Positions 2,003-35,641 of a stretch of DNA of 35,641 bases are shown here, piece after piece (the first letter of the stretch is position 1; every line of letters starts with the position of its first letter). A program made the translations under genes and the position numbers. This stretch comes from a virus. The notes beneath the pieces were generated by a model that saw only the letters and a list, made by a program, of their open reading frames with translations, made no database searches and was not told where the DNA came from. Location: the UHGV virus genome UHGV-0194711. One strand, written 5' to 3'.

Positions 2003-4522
2003 TCATGAATTAAAAGGAACAACATAATCAAAAGTACACTGGAGAGTGAAATCAAAAGTACCAGCTGCTTGAGAATATATTTCTTGGGCTGACGATTTAA
2101 TAATCGTCATTTGATTTGTCCCAGCAGGAACAAGCGGCATAACTAAAACCCCTGTAGCCGTACTAAGAATTATGCTTCCTTTAGACCCACCCTCCTGTAT
2201 AGAAGCGGCTGTAAAAGGAAGACCACTAATTACTATGGCGCCCGCAGTGCTAACCAGTAAAGAGGTTGATCTGACCCTTATATCGCAACGAACAACATCA
2301 CCAAACCGACGGTAAATTCCAATAATGGATGATGGTATTACGCTTGCGCCGCCAATTGTAATAGTTGGTGCGAATGTGCCATAAAGATACTTAAACTGAG
2401 CAGCATTACCACCGGGAAAAGCTATTGGCGGCATATAGGCATCATTTCGATTAAAAACATACTTATCGGATAAATTTGTTCCGTTTAACTCCTGAAGACC
2501 GAAAAGACGATAGTTTGAATTATCTCCAAGCTTTCTTTGAGCAACTATATTCTCACCGGCACCGATTCTTGTGCCGTTAAATTCATTAACTGGGGCAGCC
2601 TGAACCGCGCCACCTTTTACAATATCAAGGGCGAAAATATTTCCTCTTGTTGCCATCGCTGGAAATGTTGAAAGAGATGGTTCGTAGGGATCAACATTAT
2701 TAACATTAAATCTATTTCCAGCAACATCACCAAGGCCATACTTGATGATTCCTACCCTTTCCAGTATAAGAGTCCTTATTTTACTGTTACCAACATATGA
2801 TTTAAATCCGTCAACGAATTGAGCAGAGTGGTAGAATGGCGTTCTTGGAGACCACAGCACTTTAGCCTCACCAATATTGCAATGCAATATCTCCCTTCCC
2901 GGAAGTGAAATAATAGTTCTTGCGCGCCCAGCTATACCTCTATAGGTATCAACTGGGTAAACCCCATTCTGCTGATTATTTGACAACCGACCACCGCTGG
3001 CCGTAGGCAAGCAGTTTGCAGACTTGAAAACATACGTATCAAACCAAGTGTCAAGAGCGGCATATGCTGGATGTGTCCAGTCCATGCCGGTATCACCATA
3101 ATAATGAAACTTGTCTACATGGTACGAATCATTCCATCCCGCCCGATGAATATCTGATGCCGGGTACGGCGGAAGGTACTGAGACGCGTATGCATGATTT
3201 CTCGTTAGCCAGCGCCCGCCAAAAACAGGGCCTGTAATATTATACCAATATAATGTCAGCCCAGTTTGCGCCAGAGAATCAGATCCTTGATAACAAGCAG
3301 GAATGGCACACCCTGAGTACATCATATTATTTTCTACACAGCGGTTTACAGTCCCGTCTACCCATTGCCCAATAAAGAATCCGCTAATCCTGAAATCAGA
3401 AAGGTGATACTTTATGTATTGATCTGGTCCGCTGTCACCTGCGATGTATAGACCCATGGAAGATGTATGATCCCATGGTCCCGCAGTTTTTGAAAAATTA
3501 CCAATAATCCCACAATTGTGTTGGTTTTCACCAACAATCATTGAATCATCATAAACACGCAGTGCTGCTTTTGCCTTAACTGGTATTTCAGGAGCAATAT
3601 TTGAATCACCGTTCCCTATCCACCCTGGGTATACAGTCCCATCGTCGAATGGCAAATTAAACTCTATCGGTGAAGATATGCACGGATACATTTTAGTTAA
3701 ATATACCGGAAGGTTATTAGCTTTTCCGTAATCTATAGCTGCCTGTAGAAATTTAGTTGCATCAGCAGTGATGCCGTGAATATATCTTTCACCATTAATC
3801 CTTATCATTTCAGGGGTTACGTATTTTATTGCATCTTCAACGGTGCCTCCAGTAAGAACCCCTATATGCCCGCTACCTGTCGGTTTGGCATACTCAATCA
3901 TTACATCTGCTGCACTTCCACTCGAAGGCAATACCATCAATGGATTGCCATTATTATCCATTGCAACGATTTTATTTTTTCGTTCTGCAATGGAAGGTAA
4001 CGGTGTGATGCTAGACTCCGGAACGCGTAGAGTACGAGCTAGATTAATTTTTCCATTTTCAATTACAAATTTTTTAGTAGCTGCATCCTGATCGTTAACT
4101 GGATCGGCCAGATTTGCTATCCGGTAGCCGTTAGCGTTGAAAGGTCCACCGCCGAACAGCGGGCGACTTAGGGCCACTCCGAGATAAATAAACGCGCGCT
4201 GAATAGCCATCCAGAGACGGTCAAAATCTTTGTTAACTGTATCGGCCAGCAGGTCGCCGTTGTCCTGGTAATCAGTGAGCCTGTAAGTCGGCGTTACACG
4301 TTCAAAAATGACTGTAGCGCCATTGGCCGGCGCGGTCAGAAAAGTAACTTCGCCACCGCCAGTATTACCCACACCAGACACTGTATAGCCGGACGTTACT
4401 TCGTTGCCGTTGATTGTGACCTGAATATCGCTGGCGCTGATCAGGTAAAACTCATAGGCAAAGACAGTCGTCAGCCCGTTGGCGGTATAGATGTTATAGG
4501 GTGTCTGGTTCGGTACCGACAT
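2003..4522 (-). CDS. Tailspike / tail fibre protein with T7 gp17-like N-terminal adaptor and divergent low-GC receptor-binding (likely depolymerase) body
   Basis: 839 aa. N-terminal ~150 aa carry the GYRIANLADPVNDQDAATKKFV motif, similar to T7 gp17 (GRRIVNLANAVDDRDAVPFGQL). The remainder is Gly/Asn/Tyr-rich with GC dropping markedly after ~nt 4100. Confidence 0.8.
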   Translation of the reverse strand: MSVPNQTPYNIYTANGLTTVFAYEFYLISASDIQVTINGNEVTSGYTVSGVGNTGGGEVTFLTAPANGATVIFERVTPTYRLTDYQDNGDLLADTVNKDFDRLWMAIQRAFIYLGVALSRPLFGGGPFNANGYRIANLADPVNDQDAATKKFVIENGKINLARTLRVPESSITPLPSIAERKNKIVAMDNNGNPLMVLPSSGSAADVMIEYAKPTGSGHIGVLTGGTVEDAIKYVTPEMIRINGERYIHGITADATKFLQAAIDYGKANNLPVYLTKMYPCISSPIEFNLPFDDGTVYPGWIGNGDSNIAPEIPVKAKAALRVYDDSMIVGENQHNCGIIGNFSKTAGPWDHTSSMGLYIAGDSGPDQYIKYHLSDFRISGFFIGQWVDGTVNRCVENNMMYSGCAIPACYQGSDSLAQTGLTLYWYNITGPVFGGRWLTRNHAYASQYLPPYPASDIHRAGWNDSYHVDKFHYYGDTGMDWTHPAYAALDTWFDTYVFKSANCLPTASGGRLSNNQQNGVYPVDTYRGIAGRARTIISLPGREILHCNIGEAKVLWSPRTPFYHSAQFVDGFKSYVGNSKIRTLILERVGIIKYGLGDVAGNRFNVNNVDPYEPSLSTFPAMATRGNIFALDIVKGGAVQAAPVNEFNGTRIGAGENIVAQRKLGDNSNYRLFGLQELNGTNLSDKYVFNRNDAYMPPIAFPGGNAAQFKYLYGTFAPTITIGGASVIPSSIIGIYRRFGDVVRCDIRVRSTSLLVSTAGAIVISGLPFTAASIQEGGSKGSIILSTATGVLVMPLVPAGTNQMTIIKSSAQEIYSQAAGTFDFTLQCTFDYVVPFNS

Positions 4523-21678: not shown

Positions 21679-22080
21679 TTAAATTCTGCATAGACGTAAT
21701 TCCTTTATCTCGTTAGTGACCTGTTCGAGCAATTCAGTCTCCGTGCCGTAGTTTTCTTCCCATGTTTTTTGCCCTGCGTGGATAGCTACGCCGTGTCCGC
21801 CGGTTCTGTGGTGTGGCGGGCAAAGCGGGAGAGTTTCTTTGTGGTCGGCGCGCTGGGCTATGCCCTGACCGGTTCGGATGTGATGGATTTCGGGGGCGGA
21901 GTACACGCCGAAGTGTACTTTGCAGACAATACAACCTATCTCAACGAGATCTTGGAAATATTGCTTATCTGATTTACTGGCGCGCTTTTTCACAAAGCAC
22001 CCCCTTGCTGGCTGCAAACTCCCCGTAATACAAATCTTCTGCTTTCCGGCGGGCATTGATAGCATCGGCAATTTCATCAA
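21679..22080 (-). CDS. Ref-like / HNH-motif nuclease (recombination enhancement function family), start uncertain
   Basis: CIVCKVHFGVYSAPEIHHIRTGQGIAQRADHKETLPLCPPHHRTGGHGVAIHAG His/Cys metal-finger pattern. The 5' end overlaps the AP2-HNH gene by ~100 nt if the first ATG is used; GTG at 21993 with GGGGG RBS is an alternative. Confidence 0.5.
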   Translation of the reverse strand: MMKLPMLSMPAGKQKICITGSLQPARGCFVKKRASKSDKQYFQDLVEIGCIVCKVHFGVYSAPEIHHIRTGQGIAQRADHKETLPLCPPHHRTGGHGVAIHAGQKTWEENYGTETELLEQVTNEIKELRLCRI

Positions 22081-22460: not shown

Positions 22461-23057
22461 TCAGGCCGCATAACTGAAAAGCTGAGAGGCTGCGTTTTCT
22501 GCTGCCTGCTGATTAGGGAAGGTGCGGAATAAAATAAAATTCCAGAGGACGTCTAATACGGATTTGTACAGCTGGGAAAATTCTACATCGTCCATTTTTG
22601 CGAACGATATGGATTTGGGTTCCTTGCGGGTGGTGCCATCAGGCATCTGGTATTCGGTATAAAAACCGGCCTCGATAGTTACCCAGGAACGGAAAGCTTC
22701 AAACGATTTAACCGCGCTGATATTGCCGGCGCGTTTTTCTGCCTCATCGCGCAGATACTGATCCGCCAGTTCCTGCAATGTGTCGCCATGCCCGGCATAG
22801 TGGGCCACCAGCTGCACGTAACCCCGAACCAGTTTTTTATCGGCTGGCGATATTGCACCGCCGGAAGGTTGCCAGTAATCAAATCCCAGATTCAGGAGGG
22901 CAAAAAATTTACGGTGAAATGCCGAGTTCCTTGCCTGTTTAAAATCCGCATACAGAATACCGCCCATGCGGACTTTTTTTTCTAAGAATTCGCGGGCGTC
23001 AGGCGTTGCCGGAATTAATACACCGCCGGGTGCTTTTACAAAAGAATACTGCGCCAT
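22461..23057 (-). CDS. DUF1367-family phage protein
   Basis: N-terminus MAQYSFVKAPGGVLIPATPDAREFL typical of DUF1367 proteins in enterobacterial lambdoid prophages (recalled, not searched). Confidence 0.5.
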   Translation of the reverse strand: MAQYSFVKAPGGVLIPATPDAREFLEKKVRMGGILYADFKQARNSAFHRKFFALLNLGFDYWQPSGGAISPADKKLVRGYVQLVAHYAGHGDTLQELADQYLRDEAEKRAGNISAVKSFEAFRSWVTIEAGFYTEYQMPDGTTRKEPKSISFAKMDDVEFSQLYKSVLDVLWNFILFRTFPNQQAAENAASQLFSYAA

Positions 23058-23125
23058 TGGGTTCCCCTTTAGCGCAGCAATTGTTCAGAATTACATGGTG
23101 TTGGGTGTTCAGGCCAACGGGGTAA

Positions 23126-23317
23126 TTATAGCATATTGCCGTCTGGTTTGATAATGGTATAACCCGTCAATTTAGCTAATTCAAACAACGCGTTAAGTGT
23201 CGCTACGTGCTCATCGGAATGGACAATTCTGGTCTTCTTAATCTTCCCATTTTCACACGTTATCAGTACATCACCATCGTCGGGGAGAAGGTCTCCTGCG
23301 TCTTTCTTATCAACCAC
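23126..23317 (-). CDS. Small protein downstream of a LexA box (candidate SOS-controlled antirepressor); start uncertain
   Basis: Track ORF is 23126-23386, but its first 23 codons run through the LexA box and promoter. In-frame GTG at 23317 preceded by GAGGGAGAGG gives a 63-aa product. Confidence 0.4.
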   Translation of the reverse strand: MVDKKDAGDLLPDDGDVLITCENGKIKKTRIVHSDEHVATLNALFELAKLTGYTIIKPDGNML

Positions 23318-23337
23318 TACCTCTCCCTCAACAACAA

Positions 23338-23357
23338 TACTGTATAAAATTACAGTA
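23338..23357. promoter_or_regulatory. LexA (SOS) box: TACTGTATAAAATTACAGTA
   Basis: CTG-N10-CAG with AT-rich spacer, 18/20 match to the E. coli consensus taCTGTatatatataCAGta; lies just downstream of a candidate -10 (TATATA) on the minus strand. Confidence 0.7.
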
Positions 23358-23445
23358 TATATACTACCAACTGACAGTGAGCGCAAATTTTTAAGAGCAC
23401 GAATCGTTAAAAATCAACAATAAATCTCAAAATATCCGATTGAAT

Positions 23446-23480
23446 TCAAAAGAAAACCGCCATTTCTGACGGTTCTGTTT
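23446..23480 (-). terminator. Candidate rho-independent terminator ending the early-right operon
   Basis: Transcribed strand CCGTCA-GAAA-TGGCGG hairpin (one G-U pair) followed by TTTTCTTTTG, just after the 112-aa gene. Confidence 0.4.
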
Positions 23481-29526: not shown

Positions 29527-29724
29527 TTATGCTTTAGACGTGTTTTGCTCTTCGTAAAAAGTAGGGTCGTACTTCAAGGCGCCCGCGGTTACATGCTCAA
29601 GTCGCGCAGCTCGCTTTTCAGGAACAACAGTCCCCCAGCGGGTTACAGCGACTTGAGAGATACCTAATGCACGCGCAACAGCGGTTTTAGTTCCAAAAAA
29701 TCTGATAACAGTTTCGGTCTTCAT
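29527..29724 (-). CDS. Cro-like HTH regulator (YdaS-like)
   Basis: 65 aa; HTH TKTAVARALGISQVAVTRWG; divergent from repressor across an operator region. Confidence 0.7.
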   Translation of the reverse strand: MKTETVIRFFGTKTAVARALGISQVAVTRWGTVVPEKRAARLEHVTAGALKYDPTFYEEQNTSKA

Positions 29725-29792
29725 AGTTTCCTCTCCTAACGTCAGTTAGGAACATAAATACTAACGAAAGTTATGTCAAGTTAACTTATATT
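29725..29792. promoter_or_regulatory. Immunity-region divergent promoter/operator interval
   Basis: Palindromes CCTAACgtcaGTTAGG (29735-29750, overlapping the Cro RBS), CTAACgaaaGTTAT (29761-29774) and AAGTTAACTT (29779-29788) between divergent repressor and cro-like genes. Confidence 0.65.
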
Positions 29793-30206
29793 ATGGATAT
29801 GAAAAAATTGACCTTTAACGATCGCATTACATCGAGACGGAAAGAGCTTGGTTTGACACAACAGCAGCTCGCCGATGCCGTTGGCATATCTGGCGTCAGC
29901 GTTTACAAGTGGGAAGCAGGTATTAACACCCCAAAAGGGCAAAATCTGTTTTCTCTCGCTGAGGCTCTTCGTTGCTCTCCGACATGGTTACTTAACGGTA
30001 CCGATAGCGATGAACCGTTGAAGGCAGAAGAGCTTTTACCTCGGTTAGATGATCGCCAAAAGCTACTGCTTGATCTTTTTGATTCTCTACCTGAATCAGA
30101 AAAAGATAGACATATCAATGAGTTGAAAGATAAAGTTGACGGATTCCAGCGATTGTTTGATGAGTTACTTTTGGTAAAAAAGAAAAAAAACACTCCAAAA
30201 AAATAA
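29793..30206 (+). CDS. Prophage repressor, XRE-family HTH (CI/RacR-like), without S24 peptidase domain
   Basis: HTH LGLTQQQLADAVGISGVSVYKWEAG; 137 aa, too short for a LexA-like autocleavage domain; divergent from cro-like gene. Confidence 0.75.
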   Translation: MDMKKLTFNDRITSRRKELGLTQQQLADAVGISGVSVYKWEAGINTPKGQNLFSLAEALRCSPTWLLNGTDSDEPLKAEELLPRLDDRQKLLLDLFDSLPESEKDRHINELKDKVDGFQRLFDELLLVKKKKNTPKK

Positions 30207-30255: not shown

Positions 30256-30290
30256 TAACTTTTGTTAGTAAAAAACATTGCCAATAAAAA
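30256..30290 (+). promoter_or_regulatory. Candidate early-left promoter with operator-like site
   Basis: TAACttttGTTAG (operator half-sites as in 29735-29750) overlapping -35 TTGTTA (30262-30267), 17 bp spacer, -10 TAAAAA (30285-30290). Confidence 0.4.
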
Positions 30291-30457
30291 TACCTTTGGT
30301 TATGCTTCACCACATCAAAGACGCACTAACCACGCGGCAGTTGTTCAGAAACAGTTCTGACAGTCCGGAAAGACGGGCGCGAATTCTTCGGGTCGCCGAC
30401 AGTACGATGACATGCGGGAAAGACCGCAACGAATACGAATTGCTGTGTGTAGTCTTG

Positions 30458-30482
30458 GCCCGGGCGCCCCGGGCATTTTTTT
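30458..30482 (+). terminator. Strong rho-independent terminator inside the early-left leader
   Basis: GCCCGGG-cgc-CCCGGGC perfect GC stem followed by ATTTTTTT. Confidence 0.7.
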
Positions 30483-30706
30483 AAAGCATTCACGCAGTAA
30501 CGAGGAAAGACCAATGGGGCTGACCACCCTGACAGCCGGGAAAGACCGGCAACCTTCAGGCGTAAAAAAGCCCACCGAAGTGGGCTAATTTACCCGGGAC
30601 AGTGACCAAACCGCCCAGAATGCTACAGGGGACCAACCCTGTAGCGAGGAAAGACCAACGACAGAGCCGCTGATCGGCTCTGAGTATATATCATCAAGGA
30701 GTCGCT

Positions 30707-31030
30707 ATGGAAGCGCTTACCATCCCCGTAACTATTTACGTTATGGCCACAACCAAACCATATCTACCAACGTCTTATCACTCATTCACCTGTGACATGT
30801 CACAGCAATACCCTGATCTGTATGTCCTCGTTACTACCAAAACGGTAGAGGTTGCCATTCCAGCTTTAGAGCCAATCGACATTATTGGTATGCAGGTTAA
30901 TGCCCTTCGTGCGAAGAAAGAGAAAATCTCTGCCGAAGCAAAGAAGGAGCTGGGTGTTATTGAAGACCAGATTCAGCAGCTGCTGTGCATCGATCACTCT
31001 CCAATTGAAGAAAGCGACGTACCGTTTTAA
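30707..31030 (+). CDS. Hypothetical protein (first gene of early-left operon)
   Basis: 107 aa; AAGGAG RBS before ATG. Confidence 0.5.
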   Translation: MEALTIPVTIYVMATTKPYLPTSYHSFTCDMSQQYPDLYVLVTTKTVEVAIPALEPIDIIGMQVNALRAKKEKISAEAKKELGVIEDQIQQLLCIDHSPIEESDVPF

Positions 31031-34187: not shown

Positions 34188-34433
34188 ATGAGACACGATC
34201 ACGACATCATCACCAGAGAGGAAATGATCGAACTGACGGGGACCCCACTTAAATCGAGGCAGTGTGAAGCGCTACGTCGGGCCGGTGTCTTTTTCATGGA
34301 AAGGGCAGACGGCCATCCTAAAACGACGTGGGGCCATTTCCTGAACCCGATTAAATACCGCAACCAGCAGGAAGAGACGGTGCGGGAGGAAGAACCAGAC
34401 TTCGGAGCTATCTTTAATGGCCGGAAAACGTAA
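34188..34433 (+). CDS. DUF4224-family protein (excisionase-like, upstream of integrase)
   Basis: ITREEMIELTGTPLKSRQCEALRRAGVFF matches the DUF4224 pattern typically found next to integrases; TIR GAGGAAAGACCATG variant. Confidence 0.55.
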   Translation: MRHDHDIITREEMIELTGTPLKSRQCEALRRAGVFFMERADGHPKTTWGHFLNPIKYRNQQEETVREEEPDFGAIFNGRKT

Positions 34434-35433
34434 GAACCCCGCTGATAACTGGATGCCGCCCCGCGTGTATCGCGGTAAGGCGGCGTATGAATTCAGGAAT
34501 AAAGATAACAAGGCTATCAGGCTATGTGCGCTCTCCGAGCCTCAATCAGCTGTATGGCTGGCATATGAAAAAGCCATGGGAGAAGAAGTCGAGCGCAAGA
34601 CGTTTCAGGCTCTGGCCGATCAATTCATGTCTTCCCCTGACTGGCAGGATTTAGCGGCAGAAACCCGCAAAGACTACACGAAATACGCAGGCAAAGTGTT
34701 GCCGGTGTTCGGGAAGGTTAACCCCGATAAAATTAAACCGGAACACATCCGGCGCTATATGGATCAGCGTGGCATGGCCAGTAAAACGCAGGCCAACCGG
34801 GAAAAGAGTTTTCTTTCTCGGGTATTCCGCTGGGGTTATGAGCGGGGTTACGTCCAGCATAATCCCTGTCAGGGCGTTAAGAAGTTCAAAGAGGCAGCCC
34901 GGGAGCGTTACATCACCGACGAAGAATACAAAGCGGTTTACGATGTTGCTCCAGACGTAGTTCGCGCCACCATGGAAATCGCTTATTTGTGTCTGGCCAG
35001 ACAAAGCGATGTGCTGGCTTTGACTGAAGACCAGATACGCGAAACCGGGATCTTTATCCGCCAGGGGAAAACAGGCGTGAAGCAAATCAAAGCATGGTCG
35101 CCACGCCTGCGCGCCGCTGTCGCCCTCGCCCGTTCCCTGCCGTTAAAGCCGGGTATCCGTAGCCTGTTTGTCATTCACCAGACCAGCGGCAGCAAATACA
35201 CCCGTGACGGTTTTAATTCACGCTGGCGCGACGCGAAAATCGCAGCGCAGGAAAAGAACCCACACCTGCAGATAGATTTCACTTTCCACGATCTGAAAGC
35301 GAAAGGTGTCTCTGATCTGGAAGGAAGCCTCGAGGAGAAACAGGCGATTTCAGGCCATAAGAATTCGAGACAAACGGCGATTTACGACAGGAAAACTAAA
35401 ATTGTGCCGGTTGTTGGTGGTCAGAAAAAATGA
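34417..35433 (+). CDS. int: Tyrosine recombinase / phage integrase
   Basis: 338 aa; C-terminal catalytic region HDLKAKG...GHKNSRQTAIYDR (H-x-x-R and Tyr); adjacent to tRNA att site. Confidence 0.9.
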   Translation: MAGKRKNPADNWMPPRVYRGKAAYEFRNKDNKAIRLCALSEPQSAVWLAYEKAMGEEVERKTFQALADQFMSSPDWQDLAAETRKDYTKYAGKVLPVFGKVNPDKIKPEHIRRYMDQRGMASKTQANREKSFLSRVFRWGYERGYVQHNPCQGVKKFKEAARERYITDEEYKAVYDVAPDVVRATMEIAYLCLARQSDVLALTEDQIRETGIFIRQGKTGVKQIKAWSPRLRAAVALARSLPLKPGIRSLFVIHQTSGSKYTRDGFNSRWRDAKIAAQEKNPHLQIDFTFHDLKAKGVSDLEGSLEEKQAISGHKNSRQTAIYDRKTKIVPVVGGQKK

Positions 35434-35490: not shown

Positions 35491-35619
35491 CAGATACAAA
35501 AAAACCACCCGTAGGTGGTTTCACGACACTGCTTATTGCTTTGATTATTCTGCTTTATCCCAATGGTACCCGGAGCGGGACTTGAACCCGCACAGCGCGA
35601 ACGCCGAGGGATTTTAAAT
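35491..35619. repeat. Right attachment-site direct repeat (attR), including terminator hairpin and tRNA-Leu 3' half
   Basis: Near-identical to 156-283; preceded by tandem CATCTTCGGA repeats (35459-35480) that may be integrase arm sites. Confidence 0.85.
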
Positions 35620-35641
35620 CCCTTGTGTCTACCGATTCCAC
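35564..35641 (-). tRNA. leuZ: tRNA-Leu (anticodon UAA), truncated by the window edge (5' ~9 nt outside)
   Basis: Reverse complement reads ...GTGGAATCGGTAGACACAAGGGATTTAAAATCCCTCGGCGTTCGCGCTGTGCGGGTTCAAGTCCCGCTCCGGGTACCA; anticodon loop tTTAAaa gives UAA; matches enterobacterial leuZ from memory. Confidence 0.85.

Follow-up and report, generated by a model that had tools for sequence, protein, structure and literature searches.

How could a prophage be induced by DNA damage when its own repressor lacks the domain needed for self-cleavage? This question is raised by UHGV virus genome UHGV-0194711, a DNA stretch of 35,641 nucleotides (hereafter the window, which means that whole stretch), in which an SOS-type palindrome lies directly in front of a small gene. 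With a probability of roughly 0.8, we propose that this locus serves a lambdoid prophage as an SOS induction module of the Gifsy type, in which LexA would control a 63-amino-acid (aa) antirepressor that removes a DicA-type repressor and so derepresses the lytic operons. The occupancy of the site by LexA, the contact between the small protein and the repressor, and the need of the protein for induction are proposed by analogy with characterised homologues. The elements of this proposal are as follows.

23338-23357, no strand assigned: LexA (SOS) box, TACTGTAATTTTATACAGTA in the minus-strand reading, which abuts the -10 element and spans the expected transcription start.
23358-23386, minus strand: sigma-70-type promoter, with -35 TTGCGC at 23386-23381, a spacer of 17 nucleotides (nt) and -10 TATATA at 23363-23358.
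23453-23476, minus strand: terminator-like hairpin AACCGTC...GGCGGTT with a T-run, which closes the replication/early-right gene block just upstream of the SOS promoter.
23126-23317, minus strand: putative antirepressor gene, 63 aa, GTG start, of the GfoA/FsoA/Rem family (phrog_340).
29793-30206, plus strand: immunity repressor of 137 aa, with an N-terminal HTH_3 domain and a conserved C-terminal helical module, the presumed target of the antirepressor.

The site at 23338-23357, which reads TACTGTATAAAATTACAGTA, shares 17 of its 20 nucleotides with the LexA consensus of enterobacteria, TACTGTATATATATACAGTA, and both of its half-sites, CTGT and ACAG, are perfect. When the 20-nt consensus was searched for with up to three mismatches, no other site appeared in the 35.6 kb of the window, and 100 shuffles that kept its dinucleotide composition gave no match at the same threshold. 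On the minus strand, the hairpin (23476 to 23453) is followed by about 65 nt of AT-rich DNA, the -35, the -10, the box, a Shine-Dalgarno (SD) sequence (GAGGGAGAGG, 23329-23320) and the GTG start codon at 23317, and the distance between the box and the start codon is 20 nt. The initial annotation had placed a near-consensus SOS box at exactly this position, just downstream of a minus-strand -10 and after a terminator, and all of this was confirmed; the box is unique in the window, TATATA directly abuts it and the hairpin carries a T-run. The -35 and -10 were assigned on the basis of conservation and spacing, and a simple promoter scan did not list the SOS promoter. The core CTGT-N8-ACAG alone occurs twice in the window, with 0.21 copies expected. 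The second copy (30790-30805) was set aside as a LexA site owing to its G+C-rich spacer, its intragenic position and its lack of TA flanks; it is a perfect 16-bp palindrome, CTGTGACATGTCACAG, with LexA-like half-sites inside the first early-left open reading frame (ORF; 30707-31030, phrog_2479), and is probably not a LexA site.

Is this arrangement kept in relatives of the window? Close homologues of the small protein were aligned and used to scan IMG/VR viral contigs, which gave 57 loci, and a scan of genome contigs with a single protein gave one locus, in a Raoultella genome. The set used for the upstream region (n = 57) comprises 56 IMG/VR loci and the Raoultella locus, from which 52 distinct upstream sequences were aligned. 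A perfect CTGT-N8-ACAG core lies 15-24 nt before the start codon in 57/57 loci, and the start codon is GTG, or ATG in one locus. Among the 52 distinct sequences, the -35 TTGC, the -10 TATA and both half-sites are invariant, and the 17 nt between -35 and -10, the interior of the box and the interval from the box to the SD are variable, with indels. As judged from these alignments, the pattern is the footprint expected for a promoter with an overlapping LexA operator. Moreover, the repressors of the 57 loci comprise at least six helix-turn-helix (HTH) types, and the half-sites are nonetheless invariant; since they stay constant despite repressors with differing DNA-binding domains, the palindrome should not be an immunity-specific operator. 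The hairpin, in the form ACCG(T/C)C...GGCGGT, is kept in most related loci. A boxA-like sequence, GTGCTCTTAA, is present just 5' of the -35 of the SOS promoter (23390-23399, minus strand) and is kept in most, but not all, of them.

The limits of the small gene differ from those first given. The interval 23126-23386, an 86-aa ORF with a TTG start that runs through the LexA box, had been assigned to it, and this was rejected, because the 23-codon upstream extension has an in-frame stop in 40/57 loci, the indels between the box and the SD are not multiples of three, and NCBI-derived public records annotate the 63-aa product. The coding sequence is instead 23126-23317. In this frame, variable sites fall at codon positions 1/2/3 in the numbers 33/17/49, synonymous codon differences (12797) outnumber nonsynonymous ones (9575), and 46 distinct copies contain no stop and no frameshift. 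These counts indicate that the small protein is under purifying selection.

What the protein does is suggested by its family. It was assigned to phrog_340 in PHROGs with an E-value of 4.7e-23, a family labelled there as being of unknown function, and a Pfam search with the protein and four relatives returned no family, even at E 1; one relative (P0013) has a precomputed PF27490 tag, which the Pfam search of P0013 did not return. The same phrog_340 receives Fels-1 FsoA (E 1.1e-26), Gifsy-1 GfoA-like protein (E 7.6e-21) and E. coli Qin Rem (E 4.4e-21). FsoA was identified by means of the fsoA cloning/tagging primers le154/le162 in Table S1 of Lemire et al. 2011 (PMC3121763), which encode a start MNSQQMM... 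and an end ...EAGIRFEEISNVG that are the exact termini of Fels-1 STM0898.2n, and it is the best pairwise match of the window protein among the characterised members (BLASTP, 34% identity over 44 aa, E 7e-8). A search with the gfoA primer, including its engineered ATG, gave no match, and the primer minus its start codon was present in 37 IMG/VR viral contigs. In one of these loci (L075), it opens an 82-aa TTG-initiated ORF between dinI and a DUF1367 gene, and codons 2-8 of this GfoA-like protein are the same as in the published primer. The window protein is 33% identical to the GfoA-like protein over 52 aa (BLASTP, E 2e-7), and hhalign of the family alignment against it gave 92.9% probability. 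Direct BLASTP of Rem against the window protein was insignificant (E 0.019), and the relation runs through the family profile. Taken together, the sequence comparisons place the window protein in the family that holds GfoA/GfhA, FsoA and Rem, and the idea of a small LexA-controlled antirepressor at the box, put forward in the initial annotation, is thus supported.

Other assignments of the protein fared less well. Filing it with Gifsy-2 GftA was rejected, since BLASTP between the two gave no alignment and GftA falls in phrog_4847, not phrog_340; a weak match of the GfoA-like protein to phrog_4847 (E 0.039) is the only bridge between them. The 63-aa protein also weakly resembles the C-terminal 45 residues of the 'anti-repressor' phrog_4792 (E 5e-4, marginal), and other family members weakly match phrog_2379. 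P22 Ant, phrog_4792 and phrog_2379 have 190-270 aa and extra domains, compared with the 63 aa of the window protein, and the similarity is marginal.

Compared with the characterised systems, the locus is closest to the Gifsy type. The initial annotation had drawn an analogy to coliphage 186 Tum or Gifsy, of which the Gifsy part stands by family, layout and repressor type, whereas nothing links the protein to Tum. First, the window shares with the GfoA/GfhA systems of Gifsy-1 and Gifsy-3 a LexA-box promoter that lies outside the immunity region, after a terminator and downstream of the replication genes, a small phrog_340 antirepressor with a non-ATG start, a DUF1367 gene immediately 3', and a short HTH-only repressor. 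We also count as a likeness that one antirepressor serves heteroimmune repressors in that system. In Gifsy prophages, terminator-like palindromes likewise precede the LexA box (PMC3121763). The differences are that the Gifsy box lies about 385 nt from the antirepressor start with dinI between, whereas the window has 20 nt and no dinI, that GfoA has 82 aa and not 63, and that the host group of the window is Klebsiella/Raoultella. Second, the order in Gifsy-2 is two terminators, a LexA-box promoter, dinI, gftA (GTG start) and STM1020, so that the locus architecture is the same except for dinI, and GtgR is 33% identical to the window repressor, but GftA belongs, as said, to another family. The Gifsy-2 LexA box has been validated experimentally (PMC3121763). 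Third, Fels-1 FsoA is of the same protein family and acts on a GtgR-type short repressor, but the fsoA gene is part of the early-left operon, which the S24 repressor FsoR controls, lacks a LexA box and is not needed for Fels-1 induction (PMC3121763). Fourth, Qin Rem is an antirepressor that relieves DicA repression, and its inducing signal is described as unknown (PMC10448788). DicA is the closest characterised relative of the window repressor and rem lies in the nin/Q-proximal region, but there is no LexA box within 600 nt upstream of rem, and Qin is cryptic. Finally, in coliphage 186 (Tum) and phage N15 (AntC) the same logic is found, in that LexA represses an antirepressor of a non-cleavable repressor, with a different protein family. 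Tum has 146 aa, with an antirepressor N-terminal half and a DinI-like C-terminal half (PMC3121763). The 63-aa protein showed no DinI similarity, and tblastn with it at E up to 1 returned no 186/P2-like or N15 record, the Tum sequence itself not having been aligned.

Within phrog_340, two recurrent ways of wiring can be distinguished, one LexA-controlled in the nin region and one repressor-controlled in the early-left operon, and these are the two regulatory configurations described by Lemire et al. (PMC3121763). Members upstream of DUF1367 have a LexA box in the present group, in phage BUCT708 and in E. coli phage vB_EcoM-705R4, and at the Gifsy GfoA locus, also upstream of DUF1367, the LexA box precedes the antirepressor gene with dinI in between. 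No LexA box was found within 600 nt upstream of early-left FsoA, phiP27, phi467 and Klebsiella phage ST512-KPC3phi13.5, as was the case for rem.

The repressor fits such a module. Pfam detected only HTH domains and no Peptidase_S24 in the 137-aa protein, as had been stated for it, and the same search detected S24 in the repressor of a related locus, L063 (E 1.3e-15), so that the domain was detectable. A tblastn search of the window with two S24 repressors gave no S24 homologue. The protein is 44% identical to E. coli DicA over 133 aa (E 6e-40), with the C-terminal module included, its match to Gifsy-2 GtgR has an E-value of 1e-12, and its HTH resembles the N-terminal domain of P22 C2. Of the 46 related loci in which the immunity region could be seen, 45 encode an HTH-only repressor of 128-154 aa. 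In L063, an S24 repressor (2870-3646, minus strand) is found beside the same LexA-box/antirepressor/DUF1367 module and a YdaT-type early operon. This natural hybrid would have two SOS inputs, or its antirepressor would be used only in trans.

Around the repressor gene, the following elements are of use for the proposed switch.

29527-29724, minus strand: Cro/YdaS-like gene, divergent from the repressor gene, from gene calls and Pfam on identical contigs.
29736-29773, no strand assigned: candidate right operators, with the palindrome CCTAACGTCAGTTAGG at 29736-29751 and TACTAACGAAAGTTA at 29759-29773.

The Cro/YdaS-like gene is followed by YdaT/CII-like, replication-initiator and DnaB genes. TACTAACGAAAGTTA recurs in inverted orientation 3' of the repressor gene, at 30256-30270 (repeat I1, with 93% complementarity over 15 nt), and we regard 29736-29773 as candidate right operators and 30256-30270 as a candidate left operator. 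The leader that separates the repressor terminator from the first early-left gene (30707) also contains a GGAAAGACC repeat in five copies (30350-30660, plus strand), three of which form boxB-like hairpins, GCCGG-GAAAGA-CCGGC, TGCGG-GAAAGA-CCGCA and GTCCG-GAAAGA-CGGGC, with a constant loop and differing stems. These repeats may represent a nut-like site for antitermination, present in several copies; no N-like protein was found.

With these parts, the switch could work as follows. In the lysogen, host LexA on the 23338-23357 box would keep the 63-aa gene off. Upon DNA damage, RecA would be activated, LexA would cleave itself and the promoter would fire, and the 63-aa protein would then bind the 137-aa DicA/GtgR-type repressor, which is predicted to be incapable of self-cleavage. 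The repressor would be taken off the operators around 29736-29773 and 30256-30270, after which the Cro/YdaT/replication operon and the exonuclease/integrase operon would be derepressed. Since induction would sequester the repressor rather than destroy it, the switch is expected to be reversible.

Which part of the repressor would the antirepressor recognise? Co-variation between antirepressor and repressor, as a sign of a cognate pair, was looked for across the loci and none was found; for example, alongside antirepressors that share 95-98% identity, the repressors match that of the window at 34%, 52%, 62% or 99% identity. The HTH regions of the repressors fall to about 25% identity (median 29%, all pairs), and the C-terminal 50 residues have a median identity of 64% in an alignment that includes the repressors of L008-L065. 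This C-terminal module has the form L-L-x-L-F-x-x-L-P-x-S-E-K-x-R-H-L-x-E-L-x-x-K-V-x-G-F-x-R-L-F-E-E-L-L, is also carried by DicA and, in a weaker version, by GtgR, and is probably a dimerisation element. It is a candidate for the part that the antirepressor contacts, in place of the variable HTH domain, and such contact would parallel the action of GfoA and GfhA, each of which inactivates the heteroimmune GfoR and GfhR (Lemire et al. 2011, PMC3121763). We tentatively extend this, at somewhat less than even odds, to the view that one antirepressor serves many immunities by recognising the C-terminal module of DicA-type repressors and not their DNA-binding domains, which would explain the complete absence of co-variation. 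If this is true, one protein made in the SOS response could, in a polylysogen, set off all heteroimmune prophages of the Klebsiella/Raoultella group, and immunity regions could be exchanged freely with the induction circuit intact. It would also define the binding place of this antirepressor family, which is not reported in PMC3121763 or PMC10448788.

Several points weigh against the proposal of a Gifsy-type induction switch. First, the window lacks dinI, with which the Gifsy operon begins, and neither it nor any of the 57 loci gave a tblastn match to Gifsy-2 DinI. In Gifsy, induction was unaffected by deletion of dinI (Lemire et al. 2011, PMC3121763), and dinI appears typical of the Gifsy module rather than functionally required. 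Second, L063 shows that the module is not strictly tied to non-cleavable repressors. Third, the absence of co-variation fits broad specificity or no cognate relation at all, and the specificity of an antirepressor is not predictable from family membership. Fourth, the AlphaFold2 model of the small protein, a beta-hairpin and one helix, is of low confidence (pLDDT, the predicted local distance difference test score, 66.8; pTM, the predicted template modelling score, 0.33) and gives no information on mechanism; Foldseek of this model against the PDB gave nothing below E 1, and the family profile, searched against PDB sequences, brought up no credible match.

Two of these points bear on an alternative that we consider improbable, in which the gene encodes a real LexA-controlled antirepressor that acts mainly in trans on the repressors of co-resident prophages, and its own prophage is induced otherwise. 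Both the absence of co-variation and the union of the module with a self-cleaving S24 repressor in L063 would be in line with it, and a precedent exists in Fels-1 FsoA, which acts in trans on Gifsy-2 GtgR (PMC3121763). It fits poorly with the non-cleavable DicA-type repressor in 45/46 loci, with no other induction route being evident, and with the conserved C-terminal module that all of these repressors share as a possible common target. In addition, DicA, the closest characterised repressor, is inactivated by Rem, which falls in the family of the window protein.

The genes that follow the small gene bring in another alternative, and the features concerned are these.

22461-23057, minus strand: DUF1367 gene (Pfam DUF1367, E 1.2e-83), homologue of Gifsy-2 STM1020, in the irsA position.
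23100-23154, minus strand: second promoter-like site and hairpin, TTATCA, 18 nt and TG-c-TATAAT (extended -10), overlapping the antirepressor stop codon.

Over 196 aa, the DUF1367 gene product and Gifsy-2 STM1020 share 56% identity (E 4e-86), and the gene lies directly 3' of the antirepressor gene in all related loci. The second promoter-like site has 10/12 matches plus the TG, and the hairpin, GTTGG-CCTGAACAC-CCAAC at 23118-23100 (minus strand), has an almost invariant loop, CCTGAACA(A/C). Both are kept in all loci, in Gifsy-2, in a GfoA locus and in an E. coli phage, and base changes in the stem are compensatory, namely GCTGG/CCAGC, ACTGG/CCAGT and AACGG/CCGTT (L064, Gifsy-2, the GfoA locus and the E. 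coli phage). Since this hairpin has no T-run, it should not be an intrinsic terminator, and read-through into the DUF1367 gene is expected. It may serve the DUF1367 transcript as a 5'-terminal RNA signal, perhaps for antitermination or processing; Rfam found no known RNA family at the locus, its only match being the tRNA at the window end. Two genes past DUF1367, in the same orientation, a homologue of RecA-dependent nucleases of the P1 Ref type is found (RecA_dep_nuc/Ref-like, 21679-22080, minus strand, Pfam E 9e-14), which could be co-expressed with the SOS transcript, given read-through.

The alternative, which we hold to be still less probable than the one acting in trans, is that the promoter mainly serves SOS expression of these downstream genes (DUF1367/NinB-like, HNH, the Ref-like RecA-dependent nuclease and an HTH regulator), the small ORF being a leader or accessory with no part in the lysis-lysogeny switch. 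The lack of an intrinsic terminator between the small gene and DUF1367 and the co-directional genes that follow, including the RecA_dep_nuc/Ref-like one, are in its favour, as is the treatment of dinI-gfoA-irsA as one LexA-regulated operon (PMC3121763). However, the small protein is under purifying selection and homologous to three proven antirepressors, and with the conserved extended -10 promoter before DUF1367, the genes from there on could do without the SOS promoter. In Gifsy, moreover, non-polar irsA and dinI deletions were without effect on induction and the small gene alone was sufficient (PMC3121763). The two roles, antirepressor and downstream expression, are not mutually exclusive. 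As for the view that the palindrome is no LexA site at all, but a chance AT-rich palindrome or the operator of a phage-encoded regulator, the site is indeed AT-rich and palindromic and its assignment to LexA is a prediction, but the 17/20 agreement with perfect half-sites, the empty shuffles, the invariance of the half-sites in 57 loci with at least six repressor HTH types, and the shared position with the experimentally validated Gifsy-2 box make it very improbable indeed.

The wider context is that of a prophage. Large minus-strand ORFs and an annotated DNA-packaging gene region lie at one end of the window, and an integrase gene lies beside a tRNA gene at the other.

35567-35641, minus strand: tRNA gene, cut by the window end, which adjoins the integrase gene (34417-35433).

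This tRNA gene is the probable attachment site of the prophage. Homologues with a named source came from Klebsiella pneumoniae, K. variicola, K. grimontii, K. indica and Raoultella, and complete E. coli genomes held no megablast match to the region. Against phages, megablast gave only two records, both named as 'Stenotrophomonas' phages. BUCT708 (L001, OM816834.1, 'Stenotrophomonas phage vB_SmeS_BUCT708', 2266-2520) and BUCT709, both listed under Stenotrophomonas, have DNA about 81% identical to the window and carry the same module with an enterobacterial-type CTGT-N8-ACAG box. LexA of Xanthomonadales recognises a different motif, so the recorded Stenotrophomonas host may deserve a check.

In conclusion, the mechanism itself has been known since 2011, and the dinI-irsA region was already noted as conserved in Klebsiella prophages (Lemire et al. 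2011, PMC3121763); searches of the literature brought up no work on this Klebsiella module. What is new is modest, namely a dinI-less variant with the box directly before the antirepressor gene, a functional label for phrog_340, and the C-terminal repressor module as a candidate target. By this, a function is assigned to a small gene that is labelled hypothetical in public records and is common among prophages related to the window, and GfoA/GfhA, FsoA and Rem, which were studied separately, are joined with the Klebsiella group in one family. The combination of a conserved C-terminal module with a variable HTH also offers a testable idea for antirepressor contact and for prophage cross-talk in polylysogens. 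We predict that prophages of the Klebsiella/Raoultella type would be induced by SOS-triggering antibiotics via LexA and an antirepressor, reversibly and without cleavage of the repressor.

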